DNA from: a virus | Taxonomy: Duplodnaviria > Caudoviricetes | Length of the DNA stretch: 53,090 nucleotides | Strand: one strand, 5' to 3' | IMG/VR virus record: IMGVR_UViG_3300050121_000130 | Coordinates: 1 to 53,090 of that record | In this document: in pieces, positions 6,366 through 31,336 of the stretch | Position numbering within the stretch: the first letter of the stretch is position 1 | Layout of the letters: each line of letters starts with the position of its first letter | The notes under the pieces: model-generated | Seen by the model: only the letters and a program-made list of their open reading frames with translations | What the model was told of the DNA's origin: nothing | The model's database searches: none | Program-made: the position numbers and the translations under genes

Positions 6366-7852
6366 GTTATATATCACCCAAAGCTGCTTTCGAACGTCAT
6401 GCCTACCGCAAAGCTCTTGAAATCAAACACGCTCAGGAGGATAAGCAACGCAATTATGATGCCGGAATGATTGACAGGTTTAATAATCGTTGGAACGCAG
6501 CATGGGGCAGTGGCGAGTTGGTTGATAAACCTTATCGGCAGCGGTTACTGTTAATTGCCCGCGATCTCGAACGCAATAATGATTTTGCCAAATCAATTAT
6601 TTCGCCATTTGAACGTAATGTTGTAGGTTTGGGGTTTAATGTTCAAGCGAAAACAGATAGCGATGATCTCAATAATGAAATGGAAAGTATTTGGAACGAA
6701 TGGTGTGAACCTCAAAATTGCGATACAACTGGGCAATTAACATTTACTGAAATGATGCGAATGAAACTTCGAAGAACAATCGTTGATGGCGATATTGCCG
6801 CTATTGAGGTTTATGACTCAAAGTCTAAATTTATTCCTTATCGACTGCAACTTATTGAAGCGGATATGTTCGATGTTACTTTGTTCGAAAACTCCGATAC
6901 CGGAAATCGTATTTATAGCGGGGTGGAAGTGGATGAATATATTAGGCCCGTAGCTTACTGGTTCAGACAGTCAACACTAGATTATTACCTGTATAACGTC
7001 AAATCAGTCAGAATTCCTGCGGACCAGGTTAATCATTTATTTACAAAACAGCGGGTTACGCAGGTTCGCGGCATATCGCTGTTAGCGTCTTCGATGTCAT
7101 CCATACAAGATATTGGCGATTACATGGAAGCCGAACGGGTGAAAGCTCGAATATCCGCTTGTTTTTCCATGGCAGTAACTACGACACCGCAGGGGCTTGT
7201 TGGACGATCAGGGCAACAACCAGAAGATTACAAAAAGCATCGCCGTGATTATATGGAACCTGGCATGATCGAATATTTGTTGCCAGGTGAAGAAATGAAG
7301 ATTGCTTCACCGTCAGGAATAAATACAAACACCAAAGATTTCGTACAGACCAATTACCGTGCACTGTCTGCTGGACAAGGGCTTAGTTATGAATCAACTA
7401 GCCGCGATGTATCTCAGGTAAGTTATTCTTCTGCTCGACACAGTGCTTTAGAAGATCGAAAAACATATCAGCCCATACAACAATGGCTGATCAATCATTT
7501 TTGCCGAAAAGTTTATAAGCAAGTAATTATTTCAGCGGTGATGTCTGGGAGATTAAAAATCCCGGACTTTTTTACGCGCCAAAGTTATTATTTGCAGCAT
7601 AAATGGTTGCCGCCTGGATGGGATTGGGTAGATCCGCTCAAAGATGTGCAGGCCAGTAAAATTGAATACGGCATGGGGCTTACAACTTTAGAACAACTTT
7701 GTGCTGAACAGGGCAAGGATTATAAAGACATCCTCGAACAGCAAAAGAAAGAACGCGCAATGCTTAAAGATACTGGCATTGATATTGATGCCGCGACTGG
7801 CGTTGTGTCGGTAAAGGAGAATCGAGAAGATGAAACAAAAACGGACACTTGA
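6332..7852 (+). CDS. Portal protein, lambda family
   Basis: RNYDAG, ARDLERNN, NVVG.G, QVRGISLL, SYSSAR, GWDWVDPLKD; GTG start chosen by RBS (ORF open from 6302). Confidence 0.95.
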   Translation: MDFNRTVEQLVSYISPKAAFERHAYRKALEIKHAQEDKQRNYDAGMIDRFNNRWNAAWGSGELVDKPYRQRLLLIARDLERNNDFAKSIISPFERNVVGLGFNVQAKTDSDDLNNEMESIWNEWCEPQNCDTTGQLTFTEMMRMKLRRTIVDGDIAAIEVYDSKSKFIPYRLQLIEADMFDVTLFENSDTGNRIYSGVEVDEYIRPVAYWFRQSTLDYYLYNVKSVRIPADQVNHLFTKQRVTQVRGISLLASSMSSIQDIGDYMEAERVKARISACFSMAVTTTPQGLVGRSGQQPEDYKKHRRDYMEPGMIEYLLPGEEMKIASPSGINTNTKDFVQTNYRALSAGQGLSYESTSRDVSQVSYSSARHSALEDRKTYQPIQQWLINHFCRKVYKQVIISAVMSGRLKIPDFFTRQSYYLQHKWLPPGWDWVDPLKDVQASKIEYGMGLTTLEQLCAEQGKDYKDILEQQKKERAMLKDTGIDIDAATGVVSVKENREDETKTDT

Positions 7853-10286
7853 TCAAAAGTATTATCGTGATGTAGCCATTGACCCGTCAAGCATTGATAC
7901 CAAAAACCGAACAATTCCAGTGTCGTTTTCTTCTGACGAAGGAGTTATGCGGTTTGATTGGTGGGAAGGAACATCATACAACGAAATATTAGGGCACGCA
8001 CCTGGAAACGTTGATCTTACTCGATTGAGTGATATCGGCGTTTCTTTATTTAATCACGACCCTAACCAAGTAATTGGCAAAGTTTTAAATCCGGCAATTG
8101 ATAGTAAAGCCATGCGCGGAACTGCCAATATTCAATTTGATACCGATGAAGCCAGCGATATTATTTATCAAAAAGTTTTGTCCGGTACCCTCAAAGGCGT
8201 TTCTGTAGGTTACCGCGTGACGGTTTGGGAAACCGTTGACGATGGTGAAACGTCAACCTGTGGACTGTATGAAGGTCCTTGCCAAATTGCTCGTATGTGG
8301 GAACCATTTGAAATATCGATTGTATCAGTCCCAGCAGATGCAACGGTAGGCGTTGGCCGCAGTATGAACGATGACATTACACAAATTGTTCAAAGGGCCG
8401 TTAACAAAGCTTTGGCATTAGTTCGCGGTGTGGTACCCGACAACATATCAACGGTAAAAGCTGATGAAGGTACCACATGGAAAGCCCCGGCGTTAAAAGA
8501 TTTTACTAAAAAGGCATGGGGTGACTTAACTGATACCGAGAAATCAGATATTGCCGGTCACTTTGCATGGGCTGCCGAAGATCCACCGGATACATTCGGA
8601 GATTTAAAATTGCCACATCATCAAGCAAGCGATGGCAAGGTTGTTTGGGATGGCGTCTCAAACGCCGGGGACCGGATAGATCAGACTGACATCCCTTCTG
8701 GCGATTTGGATAAAGTAAAAGAGCATTTAGCCGCACACTACAAGCAATTTGGTAAAACAGCACCATGGGATGAACCGGAGGGCGACAAAGGCGAAAAATC
8801 TGCTGGTGGAACTTCAAAAAGAGATCCAGATGGATCAGGTAACGACGACATCGATGATGATGAAACCGTTGGAGATGGCGAACCAGATGATGATCCAGAT
8901 GACAATCCAGATGAAAAAAACAAACAAAATAAAAAAGCAGGGGGTAAAAAATCAATGCCTATCGATGAAAAAGAAAAAATTGCTATCCGTGAGGAAGCAG
9001 CCAAAAATGAACGCGTAAGAACCGGTGAAATTCGAGCTATGTTTAAACATTTTGCTGGTCAAGTCGACATTAAAGAAGAAGATTATATTGATGCTGGGAC
9101 TTCAGTTGACGCAACTCGTGAAGCCATCATGAAAAATATTATTGAACGCAGTGTGCCAGCCGTTCCTGCAACTCCTAATCCTGATATCACAGTAGGCGCT
9201 GACGATGAAGACAAGTTCCGTGCTGCCGCCACTGATGCACTCTGCTGGAGATCGGGAATGAAATTCGATGAAGCAAAAGCAGCACCCGGATTTAAGGCCC
9301 TTCGCGGAATCAATATGATTGATCTTGGCCGTGAAGTTTATGAGCGTCAAACAGGAAAACGTTTTAAGTCTCATGATCGTAATTTATTAGTTCGCGAAAT
9401 GGTTCAGTCTTCTGTATTCAGTTATATTCTGCAAAATGTCGCTGATAAATCCATGCAAAATGCTTATCAGTACGCTCCTGTTACATATCCAATTTGGACT
9501 AAACATGGTGTATTAAATGACTATAAACCAGCATTACGGGCGCAATTATCCGAAGTTCCATTACTGTCGAACGTTAGCAAAGGTGAAGAGTACAAACTTG
9601 TTACTTTAACCGATGCCGGTGAATGGATTCAATTGTCCAAGCGTGGTAATTTGTTCACGATTACCCGCGAGGATATTATCAATGATGATATGCATGCACT
9701 GGTAGATTTCCCTGCACGCTGGGCAACTGCTGCGAGAGAAACAATTAATAGCGATGTATATAGTGTCTTGAATGGCAATCCTAATATGGGTTATGATGGC
9801 AATCCATTATTTTACGGTAGTCATAAAAATCTTGAAGCTACCAATAAAACCGCTCCATCAAAGTTGTCTTTACAGTCAGGTATTCAGTCAATGATGTTGC
9901 AAACAGGTTTAAAAACTTCTATTCCGTTAAACATTCGGCCTAAATTTTTGCTGTCTCCAGTGGCGCTGATGTGGGGCGCTAAACAGTTGCTAAATTCGGC
10001 TGCTGATAATACCCAAGCCAATTCAGCGGTTGTCAATGTACTGGAAAACATAGTTACATTAGTTACCGATCCGTTGCTGGATTTAAACAGTCCGTCTTCA
10101 TGGTATTTGGCTGCCGATCCTGCCGTAACCGATACTGTAGAAGTTGGCTTCCTGAATGGTCAGGATACTCCATATATCGAACAGCAAGCAGGTTTCCAAG
10201 TTGATGGATTCACTTATAAAATTCGTATTGAATACGGCGTGAAAGCACTCGACTGGAGAGGCTTGTTTAAGAATCCTGGTCAGTGA
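7830..10286 (+). CDS. Prohead protease - scaffold - major capsid fusion protein
   Basis: N-terminal HK97-type protease (LFNHD, GVSVGYRV, WEPFEISIVSVPAD); C-terminal Mu gpT-like capsid (TREDIINDD, FLNGQDTPYIE, DWRGLFKNPG). Confidence 0.92.
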   Translation: MKQKRTLDQKYYRDVAIDPSSIDTKNRTIPVSFSSDEGVMRFDWWEGTSYNEILGHAPGNVDLTRLSDIGVSLFNHDPNQVIGKVLNPAIDSKAMRGTANIQFDTDEASDIIYQKVLSGTLKGVSVGYRVTVWETVDDGETSTCGLYEGPCQIARMWEPFEISIVSVPADATVGVGRSMNDDITQIVQRAVNKALALVRGVVPDNISTVKADEGTTWKAPALKDFTKKAWGDLTDTEKSDIAGHFAWAAEDPPDTFGDLKLPHHQASDGKVVWDGVSNAGDRIDQTDIPSGDLDKVKEHLAAHYKQFGKTAPWDEPEGDKGEKSAGGTSKRDPDGSGNDDIDDDETVGDGEPDDDPDDNPDEKNKQNKKAGGKKSMPIDEKEKIAIREEAAKNERVRTGEIRAMFKHFAGQVDIKEEDYIDAGTSVDATREAIMKNIIERSVPAVPATPNPDITVGADDEDKFRAAATDALCWRSGMKFDEAKAAPGFKALRGINMIDLGREVYERQTGKRFKSHDRNLLVREMVQSSVFSYILQNVADKSMQNAYQYAPVTYPIWTKHGVLNDYKPALRAQLSEVPLLSNVSKGEEYKLVTLTDAGEWIQLSKRGNLFTITREDIINDDMHALVDFPARWATAARETINSDVYSVLNGNPNMGYDGNPLFYGSHKNLEATNKTAPSKLSLQSGIQSMMLQTGLKTSIPLNIRPKFLLSPVALMWGAKQLLNSAADNTQANSAVVNVLENIVTLVTDPLLDLNSPSSWYLAADPAVTDTVEVGFLNGQDTPYIEQQAGFQVDGFTYKIRIEYGVKALDWRGLFKNPGQ

Positions 10287-26809: not shown

Positions 26810-26887
26810 ATACAACCACTTTAAGTGGTCCAAAACGACACACGCAAAAAAAGCACTCAGCCTGTAAATGGTTGAGTGCTTTTTTTA
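26810..26887 (+). ncRNA. Putative small RNA with its own promoter and terminator
   Basis: Extended -10 TGgTATAAT (26795-26803); hairpin ACCACT-TTA-AGTGGT then CCAAAAC; terminator 26846-26887. Confidence 0.55.
26846..26887. terminator. Bidirectional intrinsic terminator
   Basis: A7-GCACTCAGCC/GGTTGAGTGC-T7. Confidence 0.85.
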
Positions 26888-26934
26888 TGCCTAAAAATAA
26901 ATTTAAAATATCGCAATTATTTATATAAAATGTG

Positions 26935-26963
26935 TTGCTTTAAGTGTGTAGTTATAGTACAAT
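26935..26963 (+). promoter_or_regulatory. Sigma-A promoter of the accessory operon
   Basis: TTGCTT-17 bp-TACAAT with AT-rich upstream region. Confidence 0.7.
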
Positions 26964-27035
26964 ATAGACAAGAGGTAAGGGAAACCTCAAATAAACTGAG
27001 TCAGTCAGCATTGAGCGTGACTGCAAGGAGATAAA

Positions 27036-27287
27036 ATGAAAAAGTTTTATGCAGGAAAAAGCTATATGGGAACCAATTATACTTATGAGTCAGAATGCTG
27101 GTCAGCATACGCTTTCGGCAGCAAGGCCGAACGTGATGAATGGGTAGAAAAGAATGAATGGGATCAGAACACTAGCCAGTACGTCGCTGAAGCAGTTACC
27201 AGAACAGTAGCTTACAAAATTGCAGGTATCGACAGTAAATATAAAACACCAGTAGTGGAAGAAAATCGGTTGTCTTACAAATATTAA
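27036..27287 (+). CDS. Small hypothetical protein (accessory operon gene 1)
   Basis: AAGGAG RBS; AFGSKAERDEWV. Confidence 0.8.
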   Translation: MKKFYAGKSYMGTNYTYESECWSAYAFGSKAERDEWVEKNEWDQNTSQYVAEAVTRTVAYKIAGIDSKYKTPVVEENRLSYKY

Positions 27288-27299
27288 CATGGGGAATAA

Positions 27300-27353
27300 C
27301 GCAGAGTGACCGGGTTCGCCCGGTTAATGCGGCAAGCTGGTCACAAGCCCAGC
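27300..27353 (+). ncRNA. Twister ribozyme, type P5 permutation
   Basis: GCAGAGTGA-CCGGG(TTCG)CCCGG-TTAATGCGGC-AA-GCTGGTCACAAGCCCAGC: P1, P2, P4, pseudoknots GTGA/TCAC and GGC/GCC, conserved UAA cleavage loop. Confidence 0.88.
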
Positions 27354-27383
27354 GAAATAGACCGCGGCGAAGGAGCGAATAAA

Positions 27384-27590
27384 ATGGAATATGGCAAAGA
27401 TGATTTTATGGAAATGATTAAGGATTGGCAAACTGACAATTCGCCGGAATACGATGATTTAAAAATTGAAGAAGCAGAAATTAACGAAAATGGCAAATGG
27501 GAATCCATTGCAGAAGACGAGAAATGCACTTACTCGCTAACCGACGATGGCACCGGGAACATAGTCATAAATTACCTTGATACAAAATAA
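27384..27590 (+). CDS. Highly acidic 68-aa protein (possible DNA mimic)
   Basis: AAGGAG RBS; about 20 D/E versus 6 K. Confidence 0.8.
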   Translation: MEYGKDDFMEMIKDWQTDNSPEYDDLKIEEAEINENGKWESIAEDEKCTYSLTDDGTGNIVINYLDTK

Positions 27591-27636
27591 AACCAGCCGG
27601 GCATCGTCCCGGCTTTAATTTTAAGGAGGAAAACAT

Positions 27637-27978
27637 ATGAGCAGAAAACAAATATGGTTAAATCCACCGCTTGAACGTCTTGCCGAACAATGCGGACAGG
27701 CCAAAGGGCGCGATGGTAAATTTTCCGCTCGTTTGGGTGATATTGTGGAGCGTTACGAGGCTATTATGGCTAACACGCCCGTCCCAGCAATGACTGATGA
27801 AGAAAAAATGATACTCGGTGCCGCTGTATGTGGAAGTGTATTATCAACAATCACAATTAAATACTTGCATGAGGGTATATCTGATCTAGGTATCCCCGGC
27901 GCAATAGAGTTGGCGGAAAAGGTACAGGAGTGGACGGCTGCTGAGCGGATCGCTGCTATTGAATCATTAAAGGTATGA
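27637..27978 (+). CDS. Putative ribbon-helix-helix-like regulator
   Basis: AAGGAGG RBS; RKQIWL strand, helix, FSARLGDIVERY helix. Confidence 0.6.
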   Translation: MSRKQIWLNPPLERLAEQCGQAKGRDGKFSARLGDIVERYEAIMANTPVPAMTDEEKMILGAAVCGSVLSTITIKYLHEGISDLGIPGAIELAEKVQEWTAAERIAAIESLKV

Positions 27979-28511
27979 ATCTCCGTCTCAAACCAAAAAC
28001 CTGCGCTACATGTGGTGTGGGTTTTATCGGTGGTCCAACGGCCACATATTGCCCAACCTGCCGAGCTGAACGAATACGCCAGCATGATCGCGAGCGTCAT
28101 CAGCGCAAGCTTGCTGGACAACTCAGGCACATTGGATCAACTGATCTATGCTTAATTTGTGGCAAGTCATATGAGGTTGTAGGTGGAAATCAAAAATATT
28201 GTGAGCCTTGTTCGGTGGCTAAAACTAAAAGACACGCTCACGAGTTATGGCTTGCTGAATATTATGATGATCCAGTTAAACGTCAAAAATACCTGCAACG
28301 AGCTAGGCAATGGGCTGAATCGCATAAGGACCGGATGGCTGAAATATTGCGGAAAAGCTATAAACGCCATCTGGATGACATTAAAGATAAGCGCCGCAAA
28401 ATGTACGGCGTAAAATTAAGACCATTAGGGCGGACGGAAATCTGCCCGAAGTGTGGCAACGAGTTTATAGTTTGTGAACGCAACCAGAAATACTGCCCCA
28501 CCTGCAAATAA
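27975..28511 (+). CDS. Basic multi-zinc-finger protein
   Basis: Three CxxC...YCxxC units, Arg/Lys-rich. Confidence 0.75.
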   Translation: MNLRLKPKTCATCGVGFIGGPTATYCPTCRAERIRQHDRERHQRKLAGQLRHIGSTDLCLICGKSYEVVGGNQKYCEPCSVAKTKRHAHELWLAEYYDDPVKRQKYLQRARQWAESHKDRMAEILRKSYKRHLDDIKDKRRKMYGVKLRPLGRTEICPKCGNEFIVCERNQKYCPTCK

Positions 28512-29620: not shown

Positions 29621-30859
29621 TCACGGCTTCGCAAGGTTTAACTTGCGGAGCTTTTTTATTTTGCTAATCGGTTTGCTAATCTCTTTGCTAATCTTTTTCT
29701 TTCCAAACATATCATCCATTGCCGTAGCTGTTTCGTTTTGCATATCATTTGCAACGTGCTGGTAGTAGTTGGCTGTAAAACTAGACTTCTTATGGCGGAG
29801 CTTCTTCGATACAATTTTAACGTCAATTTTTTGTCTAAGGAGCAGGGTAGCGTGAGTATGTCGCATGTCGTGAATTCGAATAACAGGCAACTTCATCTTT
29901 TCTTTGTCTTCTTCTTTAATTTTTTCGTCATTATCAATTTTGATATTTTGATTCTTAATGAATTTTATGAAATCATGATAGAGCGAATTCGGATATAACG
30001 GCGATCCGTCTTCGTGGCAACACACATATTCTATTTTTTTAAAGCACGGACCGAGCTGTAATTTATTTAATTTTTGCTGTTTCAATTCATTTTCAAGAGC
30101 AAGAATAACAACATGTGGAATTGGTATGTATCCTTCACTGCTGTCTGTTTTTAACGGGCCGAGTTCTAATTGCTTTGTTTCTCTGTTCAAACTTAAACTG
30201 TTTCTAATAAAAGCCGATCTTTCTGCTAGATTTATATCTTCCCATCTAAGACCGCATATCTCGCCACGCCGTAATCCGCACAAAAACCCCAGCAGAGCAA
30301 CTATATATAAAGATGTAGGTTTGGCTAGGTCAAGAAACCTTTGAACCTCTTCTGGCGTATATACGGCATTATGCGGGGCGTTTCGTTTCGGTGAATCAAC
30401 AGATGCACACGGGTTTTTACTGATTAACTGCCAGTCAACCGCTTTATCTAATGCTTGTTTTAAAACTGAATATTGACATTGAACCGAAGTAGGCCGCAAA
30501 CCTCTTTCTCGCTCGGTGTTTAAATATTCCTTAATTTTTAACGGGCTTAGCTTTTCTAATTCGACACTACCGATAATTTTAATGATGTTTTTAATTTTAA
30601 AGCTATAGCTTGATGAGGTCCCTTCTCTCTTATCTGGCTTTATTTCAACATCAAGCCATTTGTTTAAAAAACTCTCAACGGTAGTTTTTTCCGAAAAAAC
30701 AACTTCCCCACGAGAATAATCGGTAATTAACTCTCTCTCTTTTCGTTGAGCATCACGCAAAGACGGACCAGCATTAATCCATTTTTGCTTTTTTTTGTTT
30801 TGAGCATCGCGGTAGGTAACTATTACAGAATAGTTATCGCCGCGTTTTTTTATTGCCAT
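29621..30859 (-). CDS. int: Tyrosine integrase
   Basis: GLRRGEICGLRW, LKT, RIHDMRHTHAT, LRH, YYQH; N-terminal arm-binding domain; GGAGG RBS before ATG 30859. Confidence 0.97.
   Translation of the reverse strand: MAIKKRGDNYSVIVTYRDAQNKKKQKWINAGPSLRDAQRKERELITDYSRGEVVFSEKTTVESFLNKWLDVEIKPDKREGTSSSYSFKIKNIIKIIGSVELEKLSPLKIKEYLNTERERGLRPTSVQCQYSVLKQALDKAVDWQLISKNPCASVDSPKRNAPHNAVYTPEEVQRFLDLAKPTSLYIVALLGFLCGLRRGEICGLRWEDINLAERSAFIRNSLSLNRETKQLELGPLKTDSSEGYIPIPHVVILALENELKQQKLNKLQLGPCFKKIEYVCCHEDGSPLYPNSLYHDFIKFIKNQNIKIDNDEKIKEEDKEKMKLPVIRIHDMRHTHATLLLRQKIDVKIVSKKLRHKKSSFTANYYQHVANDMQNETATAMDDMFGKKKISKEISKPISKIKKLRKLNLAKP
29660..29693. repeat. Integrase arm-type sites, right (inside int 3' end)
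   Basis: TTTGCTAATC x3 at 12-bp period (29660, 29672, 29684). Confidence 0.8.
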
Positions 30860-30982
30860 AGATAAACCTCCCTTTAAATAATAAAAAAACATAGCATCAA
30901 TAGTGGCTGCGATGTTTAGGTAAATAATCAATAGCGTCTACAATTTTTGATATATTTCGACATTCATTAACAAAAATAGAAG

Positions 30983-31336
30983 TTATTTTTGTTCGGTTTG
31001 TTTTAACGAATCCGAATCAAGAACATAATCAATAATGGATTTGTTTTTTTCTGAAGTATTTTTAATTTTTTTTAACATGTTAACATCTTCGTCGGAGCTG
31101 ACAAAATTAAGCTCTTTTGACGGACTACGCCCATAAAGCCAATCAATAGAAACGTTGTAAAAATCAGCTATTTCTAAAAGTTCCTCTATGTGAGGCATAC
31201 GTTTTCCTAATTCGTGACTGCTTATTGTTGAAGTAGAACCATAACCCATAAATTTTTGAACGTCCTTTTGAAGGTATCCAGCTTCTTCGCGTGCTTGTCT
31301 CAATCTAGCACCTACCAATTTAGCCGTGTTTTTCAT
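30983..31336 (-). CDS. CI-like XRE repressor
   Basis: RLRQARE...QKDV...STISSHELGKRMP...IADFYNVSIDWLYGR; divergent from cro. Confidence 0.9.
   Translation of the reverse strand: MKNTAKLVGARLRQAREEAGYLQKDVQKFMGYGSTSTISSHELGKRMPHIEELLEIADFYNVSIDWLYGRSPSKELNFVSSDEDVNMLKKIKNTSEKNKSIIDYVLDSDSLKQTEQK

Follow-up and report, generated by a model that had tools for sequence, protein, structure and literature searches.

Background

The closest natural precedent for the arrangement described here is found among prophage hammerhead ribozymes. In the available part of the report on them (PMC3088659, Perreault et al. 2011), hammerheads found close to integrases flank single genes that differ from case to case, one example being the acidic anti-restriction protein ArdA; they cut polycistronic RNAs of about 2 kb in vitro, and polycistronic processing was proposed as their role. 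Processing of polycistronic transcripts is also suggested for twisters in the available sections of PMC6765202. In the engineered pRAP system, a twister set before each ribosome-binding site cuts a polycistronic mRNA in E. coli, and the upstream cistrons were poorly expressed until a stem-loop was set before the cut (PMC9872166, available sections). The twister class itself is described, in the accessible part of PMC5408937, as having a U-A cleavage dinucleotide and a P5 stem that is optional. The self-cleaving glmS ribozyme is comparable too: it sits in the 5' leader of a bacterial gene, and its cut alters expression (PMC6765202, same sections).

How does the present locus compare with these systems? 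The window, by which we mean the whole stretch of DNA analysed, has 53,090 bases and is a complete IMG/VR virus record, estimated by CheckV to be 73% complete. It carries a type-P5 twister between two small genes, orf83 and orf68, within an accessory region bounded by the late genes on one side and the integrase on the other. Like the hammerheads in the available text of PMC3088659, the ribozyme stands directly upstream of a small gene and close to an integrase, here at 2.3 kb from it; unlike them, it belongs to another ribozyme class, and a single ribozyme makes one cut with no excised segment. As in glmS, the self-cleaving RNA lies in the 5' leader of a gene, but glmS needs a ligand and goes with a single gene family, and nothing here suggests a ligand. 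In pRAP, as far as the available text goes, the twister cuts at its 5' end and needs the added stem-loop, whereas in a natural type-P5 twister the P1 hairpin before the cut fills that part.

Results and discussion

The phage and its probable host

The source of the record is an uncultured temperate tailed phage. It encodes a large terminase and a portal, as well as a head protease/major head fusion; with matches to families of head-maturation protease and of major head protein, the 818-aa ORF at 7830-10286 has the look of a gene in which protease and capsid are fused. The genes of lysogeny lie to the right of the ribozyme:

29621-30931, minus strand: tyrosine integrase
30983-31336, minus strand: cI-like repressor

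The accessory region has a G+C content of 40%, against 64% for the ribozyme. In the same part of the record, a 178-aa basic protein (27975-28511, pI 9.6) with repeated CxxC pairs has weak family matches only, and its ORF overlaps the stop codon of the PHROG 14350 gene ahead of it.

For the terminase, the best matches are to a phage of Paenibacillus (42.7%) and one of Faecalibacterium (38.8%). Nucleotide matches lead from the record to Paenibacillus larvae phages, and with the orf68-family profile one locus of 31% identity was picked up, in a Dysosmobacter MAG. From these three kinds of match the host is probably a member of the Bacillota (Firmicutes). The exact 28-nt string of core plus P4 has no match in 185,579 species genomes. 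As for habitat, the labels of 14 of the 15 listed runs read peat, bog or permafrost metagenome.

A full-length type-P5 twister

Both strands of the 53 kb were scanned with cmscan against all 4227 families of Rfam 15 at the gathering score. The only match above threshold in the record is Twister-P5, and a search of the phage's own genome gave the same match:

27300-27352, plus strand: type-P5 twister self-cleaving ribozyme (RF02684), with the predicted cut between U27325 and A27326

The match scores 61.3 bits against a cut-off of 37.6 (E 2.1e-10) and spans model positions 1-58 of 58 without truncation. The sequence-only reading had placed a type-P5 twister at this site and named the Rfam covariance model as the check, and the full-length match above the gathering score bears it out. 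A laxer E-value scan of 15000-40000 added nothing except a chance-level miRNA match (24 bits against a cut-off of 80.5). When the two halves of the core were searched for in the window, only chance-level near-matches came up, and thus no further ribozyme or twister fragment. With a single ribozyme and one cut, an excised or circular RNA is not expected.

The anatomy is that of the class in its P5 permutation, in which a loop closes P1 and the RNA opens next to P2 and P4. P2 is formed by CGCA 27300-03 with UGCG 27328-31, P1 by ACCGGG 27309-14 with CCCGGU 27319-24 under a UUCG cap, and P4 by (G)CUGG 27336-40 with CCAG(C) 27349-53. The pseudoknot T1 joins L1 with L4 through GUG(A) 27306-09 and (U)CAC 27341-44, and T2 joins L2 with L4 through GC 27332-33 and GC 27347-48. 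The three helices had been read by eye in the same way, and they agree with both the RF02684 alignment and the minimum-free-energy fold. For the pseudoknots the earlier claim stands in part: T1 and two G-C pairs of T2 are found, while the third T2 pair that it had drawn takes up G27331 and C27349, bases that already belong to P2 and P4 in the model.

Identity to the upper-case consensus positions is 27/29, and the remaining two are a compensated U-A pair in P4. The alignment flags no non-canonical pairs, and the adenine 3' of the scissile bond (A27326) is present. The nested helices P1, P2 and P4 are the minimum-free-energy fold of 27295-27358, at -25.9 kcal/mol with a z of -3.4, and 0 of 200 shuffles were as stable. 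In this fold UAA stays unpaired between P1 and P2, which puts the U-A cleavage dinucleotide at the predicted cut, U27325/A27326, the position that had been proposed before. Compared with the RF02684 class as given in the accessible part of PMC5408937, the locus shares P1, P2, P4, T1, T2, the U-A cleavage dinucleotide, the core and a closed P1, and shows no structural difference. A recognisable P5 stem is missing here, in that no pairing of 27280-99 with 27353-70 appears in the predicted folds; as P5 is optional in the class, this has no bearing on membership. What sets the locus apart from the class is its flanks: a coding region ends on the 5' side, and a translation leader follows on the 3' side.

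In a longer context of 161 nt, the nearest-neighbour minimum-free-energy structure, from a program that cannot model pseudoknots, exchanges P2 for a pairing of GCGG with CCGC. This pairing could be a competitor of the active fold before the cut.

Could the element be an inactive look-alike or a decayed copy that no longer cuts? A 156-nt contig from run X13, a bioreactor RNA library, runs uncut over 27230-27385 and is compatible with such a copy. Contigs show neither ends nor strand, and this one may reflect DNA carry-over, uncut RNA or religated RNA. Against it stand a score 24 bits over the curated cut-off, a core that lacks none of its conserved bases, and the recurrence of the same sequence, unchanged, in a second viral contig (L004) and in contigs from two other runs, all of which makes an inactive copy very improbable. 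The locus carries a genuine and intact type-P5 twister, and its cleavage is predicted.

The downstream gene orf68 and its start

Directly behind the ribozyme come the following features:

27353-27383, plus strand: leader of orf68, 31 nt, with the Shine-Dalgarno motif AAGGAG at 27370-75
27384-27590, plus strand: orf68, a 68-aa protein and the downstream cistron, placed by homologue starts and the Shine-Dalgarno motif
27595-27623, plus strand: terminator-like hairpin AGCCGGG/CCCGGCU followed by UUUAAUUUU, from the terminator scan (7 pairs, 6 of them G-C); the hairpin proper is 27595-27614

The AAGGAG motif lies 8 nt upstream of ATG 27384, and the distances from P4 are 17 nt to the motif and 31 nt to the ATG. 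The leader also holds CCGC at 27362-65, complementary to GCGG at 27329-32. In the predicted fold of the 3' product, 27329-33 (GCGG(C)) pairs with 27360-65 ((G)CCGC) around P4.

Where does orf68 begin? Twelve homologues at 59-70% identity start at the methionine equivalent to ATG 27384, and an N-terminal extension occurs in only one of the 12, where it is unrelated to that of the window. Two longer starts were considered and rejected, GTG 27306 of the ORF track and ATG 27327 of an 87-aa database entry (P0001); both are artefacts of a frame that is open through the ribozyme. The sequence-only reading was thus right that the call from 27306 is mis-started. Its distance of 58 nt from the cut to the next ATG holds for the SD-preceded ATG 27384; taken literally it fails, for the next ATG is 27327-29, within the UAAUGC of the core.

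That inner ATG suggests another possibility, that the cut leaves an A-AUG (27327-29) from which leaderless translation yields an 87-aa protein 19 residues longer than orf68. The ATG is indeed in the orf68 frame, which is open through to orf68, and an entry of precisely these 87 aa exists in the protein database. Over the 31 type-P5 sites described below, the core AUG is in frame at 13 and reads through at 7, which is close to chance, and the 12 orf68 homologues start at a methionine preceded by a Shine-Dalgarno motif. We therefore give leaderless initiation at this site very little credence.

The orf68 protein is acidic, with 20 D+E, 6 K+R and a pI of 4.05, and its AlphaFold model (pLDDT 87.8) has one helix on a beta-sheet. 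Against Pfam only a sub-threshold match to DUF5640 was obtained (20.3 bits against 28.5). Searches of PHROG and PADLOC gave no match, and ESM Atlas gave no usable one. Foldseek with the model against PDB returned nothing at E <= 0.001, and in a wide VIA-align search the best Z was 6.2, to cystatin-like or PepSY-like small alpha+beta domains, which is below the level that the tool regards as meaningful. By analogy with ArdA, and from its acidity, one might guess at an anti-defence role.

The upstream gene orf83 and its putative promoter

The part of the unit upstream of the ribozyme reads as follows:

26846-26886, plus strand: terminator-like element, A7, hairpin GCACUCA/UGAGUGC with a 13-nt loop, T7 (sequence reading)
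26935-26963, plus strand: promoter-like site, TTGCTT, 17 nt, TACAAT (sequence reading, putative)
27036-27287, plus strand: orf83, an 83-aa protein and the upstream cistron (ORF list)
27288-27299, plus strand: 12-nt spacer, in which a second TAA (27297-99), in the orf83 frame, abuts the ribozyme

The first of these elements would close the preceding transcription unit; the terminator scan missed it, as its loop limit was 8 and the loop here has 13 nt. The -35 hexamer of the promoter-like site is weak (3/6). It falls within sequence that the window has in common with L004, where the counterpart reads TTGCGT, 17 nt, TATACT and is immediately preceded by a TG. A transcript start near 26970 is predicted from this site. 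The leader of orf83, 26970-27035, hardly differs in L004, although farther upstream the two contigs are unrelated; its predicted fold has two hairpins, with a z of -2.4 (4 of 200 shuffles are as stable), and it has no Rfam match. It may be a regulatory leader.

The TAA stop of orf83 lies 12 nt ahead of the ribozyme. The protein has no match in Pfam, PHROG or PADLOC, and among 5.8 billion clustered proteins only 3 homologues were found.

A natural variant without the ribozyme and orf68

The ribozyme in L004 is the same in sequence and score. The window and L004 are 100% identical over about 27230-27690, whereas identity is 93% for orf83 and only 60% for the next gene. An identical block amid diverged flanks suggests that it was exchanged recently. 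Two runs labelled peat metagenome, X2 and X3, hold the whole block at 99-100% identity and the ribozyme without any difference; for their copies together with that of L004, no differences are listed over 27232-27549. Another run, X6, covers 26878-26920 only, outside the block, at 90-95% identity.

A natural variant lacks a segment of the locus:

27286-27585, plus strand: 300-nt block absent from the variant, its edges ambiguous by 2 nt

This block consists of the 12-nt spacer, the 53-nt ribozyme, the 31-nt leader and 204 nt of orf68 coding sequence. The variant is a DNA contig of run X3 (262 nt, depth 2.3, one contig) in which the end of orf83 is joined straight to the terminator region, and the joint holds no ribozyme remnant. 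The orf83 end on it is diverged, with 32 differences in 192 nt, and matches the C-terminus of P0015, a diverged orf83 allele encoded on an 11,460-nt contig. Searching the viral contigs with P0015 gave no additional contig. In this one low-depth contig, ribozyme, leader and orf68 thus behave as one unit of gain or loss.

What stands beside orf68 elsewhere? The orf68-family profile retrieved 28 metagenome loci, and Rfam scans of all 28 gave five ribozymes. At L063 a Twister-P5 lies directly upstream of the orf68 homologue, and at L052 and L059 a Twister-P5 lies about 1 kb upstream of the orf68 relative, each heading another gene. Two further loci carry a twister-sister (RF02681), a separate Rfam family that is absent from the window, in an equivalent position beside the orf68 relative: directly upstream at L078 (1105-1184, 64.3 bits) and directly downstream at L064 (1642-1721, 50.6 bits). 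L064 also has a match to the int-alpA RNA on its minus strand (559-629, 43.1 bits).

No Rfam ribozyme lies within 1.5 kb of the orf68 relative at 23 of the 28 loci, and none is adjacent at 25. The family can therefore do without a ribozyme, since most of its loci have none. Promoter-like TTGACA/TATAAT sites stand ahead of the orf68 relatives at L065, L068 and L071-74, and the remaining loci have a plain short spacer behind an unrelated upstream gene, or promoter-like hexamers. A ribozyme of varying class, or a promoter, in the same place would give orf68 relatives their own 5' end.

Layout of type-P5 twisters in viral contigs

Is the packing of stop codon, ribozyme and ribosome-binding site peculiar to this phage? 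A degenerate core pattern gave 47 viral loci, or 48 matches with the window, of which 42 are unique: 31 of type P5 (window included), 10 of type P1 and one unclassified. At 20 of the 31 type-P5 sites, an upstream stop closing a frame of >=50 codons falls -1 to 3 nt before GCAGAG; at 7, that of the window among them, it lies 4-20 nt away, and at the remaining 4 no such stop was found. On the other side, a start preceded by a Shine-Dalgarno motif follows 10-45 nt after the core at 28 of the 31, and at 85-91 nt at the other three. For type P1, such a start is nearby at 3 of 10 sites. The ORFs downstream of the type-P5 sites are mostly of 46-134 aa and almost all mutually unrelated. As the flanks are unrelated in 462 of the 465 pairs of type-P5 sites, these cases of the layout are largely independent. 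The twisters of L052, L059 and L063 have the same layout, with starts 16-27 nt downstream and stops 1, 4 and 28 nt upstream.

A side observation concerns the stop codons. In L005-L051 the triplet before (C)GCAGAG of type-P5 sites is usually UAA, UAG or UGA, with a real upstream stop in the 20 of 31 just given, and type-P1 copies have A/G-A at the equivalent place. These purines may be a part of the ribozyme that doubles as a stop codon.

The RNA fold appears in the variation among sites. P1 has 30 different sequences in the 31 type-P5 sites, every one a hairpin of 5-11 bp, and P4 has 15 distinct helices among them. The centre pair of T1, in 40 unique viral twisters, is U:A in 35, G:C in 4 and A:U in 1, and is never unpaired. 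This covariation in P1, P4 and T1 indicates that the fold is under selection.

It also bears on another explanation, that the near-invariant core of about 30 nt, common to unrelated phages, mainly acts or survives as a patch of homology at gene junctions, where recombination would swap the downstream genes, cleavage being incidental or neutral. The pair L015/L032 fits such a role, having the ribozyme and the downstream gene in common with a homology that begins exactly at the 5' edge of the ribozyme. In L032 a truncated second twister half is joined directly to a Shine-Dalgarno motif after the cargo gene, and the identical block of the window and L004 within diverged flanks points the same way. 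However, selection on helices and pseudoknot goes beyond DNA identity, the joint of the cassette-less variant is free of any ribozyme remnant, and a one-sided boundary occurs in only 1 of the 465 site pairs. On balance we regard this explanation as unlikely.

The second half-twister of L032 lies about 430-470 nt past the twister core (pattern start 13524). It is a 5' half, L1 strand plus P1 hairpin, joined to SD and ATG after a pentapeptide-repeat cargo gene, and it looks as if a deletion or recombination took the catalytic core.

The leaders behind the ribozymes were compared for the element seen in orf68. At 17 of the 31 sites, a 4-mer able to pair with the freed P2 strand stands no more than 30 nt from P4, against 5.1 sites expected from dinucleotide shuffles; such a 4-mer is present in 27% of 586 control leaders (binomial p 0.001). 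The window leader is itself so rich in G+C that 70% of its own shuffles also hold a complementary 4-mer, and P2 is too invariant for a covariation test of the leader element. At L052, L059 and L063 the element is not clear. Re-pairing of the leader element after the cut is a lead from modelled pairing, not a result.

Proposed processing of the transcript

As the best explanation, in which the transcription unit, the cleavage in vivo and the effect on expression are what we infer, we consider it probable that the twister serves intercistronic processing of a two-gene accessory transcript, with both products capped by hairpins. The transcript would run from the promoter-like site at about 26935-63 through orf83, the twister and orf68 to the terminator-like hairpin at 27595-27614. 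Once P4 has been transcribed, the RNA would fold and cut itself between U27325 and A27326. The upstream product would carry orf83 and end in the 6-bp, UUCG-capped P1 hairpin plus one nucleotide with a 2',3'-cyclic phosphate. The downstream product would begin with a 5'-OH and three free nucleotides, followed by the P4 hairpin, the strong ribosome-binding site and orf68; the GCGG/CCGC helix possibly encloses the P4 hairpin on it. The two cistrons would so become separate messages with structured ends, and as separate messages the stability and translation of orf83 and orf68 would be independent.

The sequence-only reading had suggested that the 5'-OH may make the downstream message more stable, which is speculative and cannot be taken for granted. 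Would the cut not rather harm that message? In Bacillus the 5'-OH product of the glmS ribozyme is degraded by RNase J1. By analogy, a 5'-OH in a Firmicute may mean decay by RNase J1 rather than protection. It follows as a possibility that the cut exposes the 5'-OH of the orf68 message to RNase J1-type decay and thereby tunes orf68 constitutively below orf83, as the likely host is a Firmicute and cleavage of glmS dramatically reduces gene expression (available sections of PMC6765202). It would be odd, however, for a cargo gene to bring along a ribozyme that does nothing but harm it. Moreover, in the orf68 product a stem would follow the 5' end after just 3 free nucleotides, and the Shine-Dalgarno motif is a strong one; both of these features protect Bacillus mRNAs. 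Such down-tuning is therefore doubtful, and we retain the processing of the transcript into two capped messages as the preferred reading.

A more general proposal can be put forward tentatively, namely that type-P5 twisters of phages stand at the head of portable cassettes, each followed by a short leader that holds a ribosome-binding site and by one small accessory gene. Such a cassette would insert right behind the stop codon of a resident gene and ahead of its terminator, borrow the resident gene's promoter, and then cut itself free. The P5 permutation would be favoured at such junctions, since both RNA ends made by the cut then carry a hairpin. A leader element (C)CGC(A) would then re-pair with the freed UGCGG strand, displace the upstream fragment and cap the 5' end. 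The proposal draws on the presence and absence of the 300-nt block, on the boundary of L015/L032 at the ribozyme edge, on the ribozymes flush with a stop (20/31) and followed by SD and start (28/31), and on the complementary 4-mer (17/31).

Conclusions

As an instance the locus is ordinary: the ribozyme class, its association with phages and the idea of processing a multi-gene message are already in print. What it adds is a compact case, in which one putative promoter, two small genes, one ribozyme and one putative terminator stand together. Reading the ribozyme also corrects a mis-started gene call, that of orf68. The recurrent packing of stop codon, ribozyme and ribosome-binding site suggests a general rule, and the natural allele without the block of ribozyme plus gene makes the question of what twisters do in bacteria and phages approachable.
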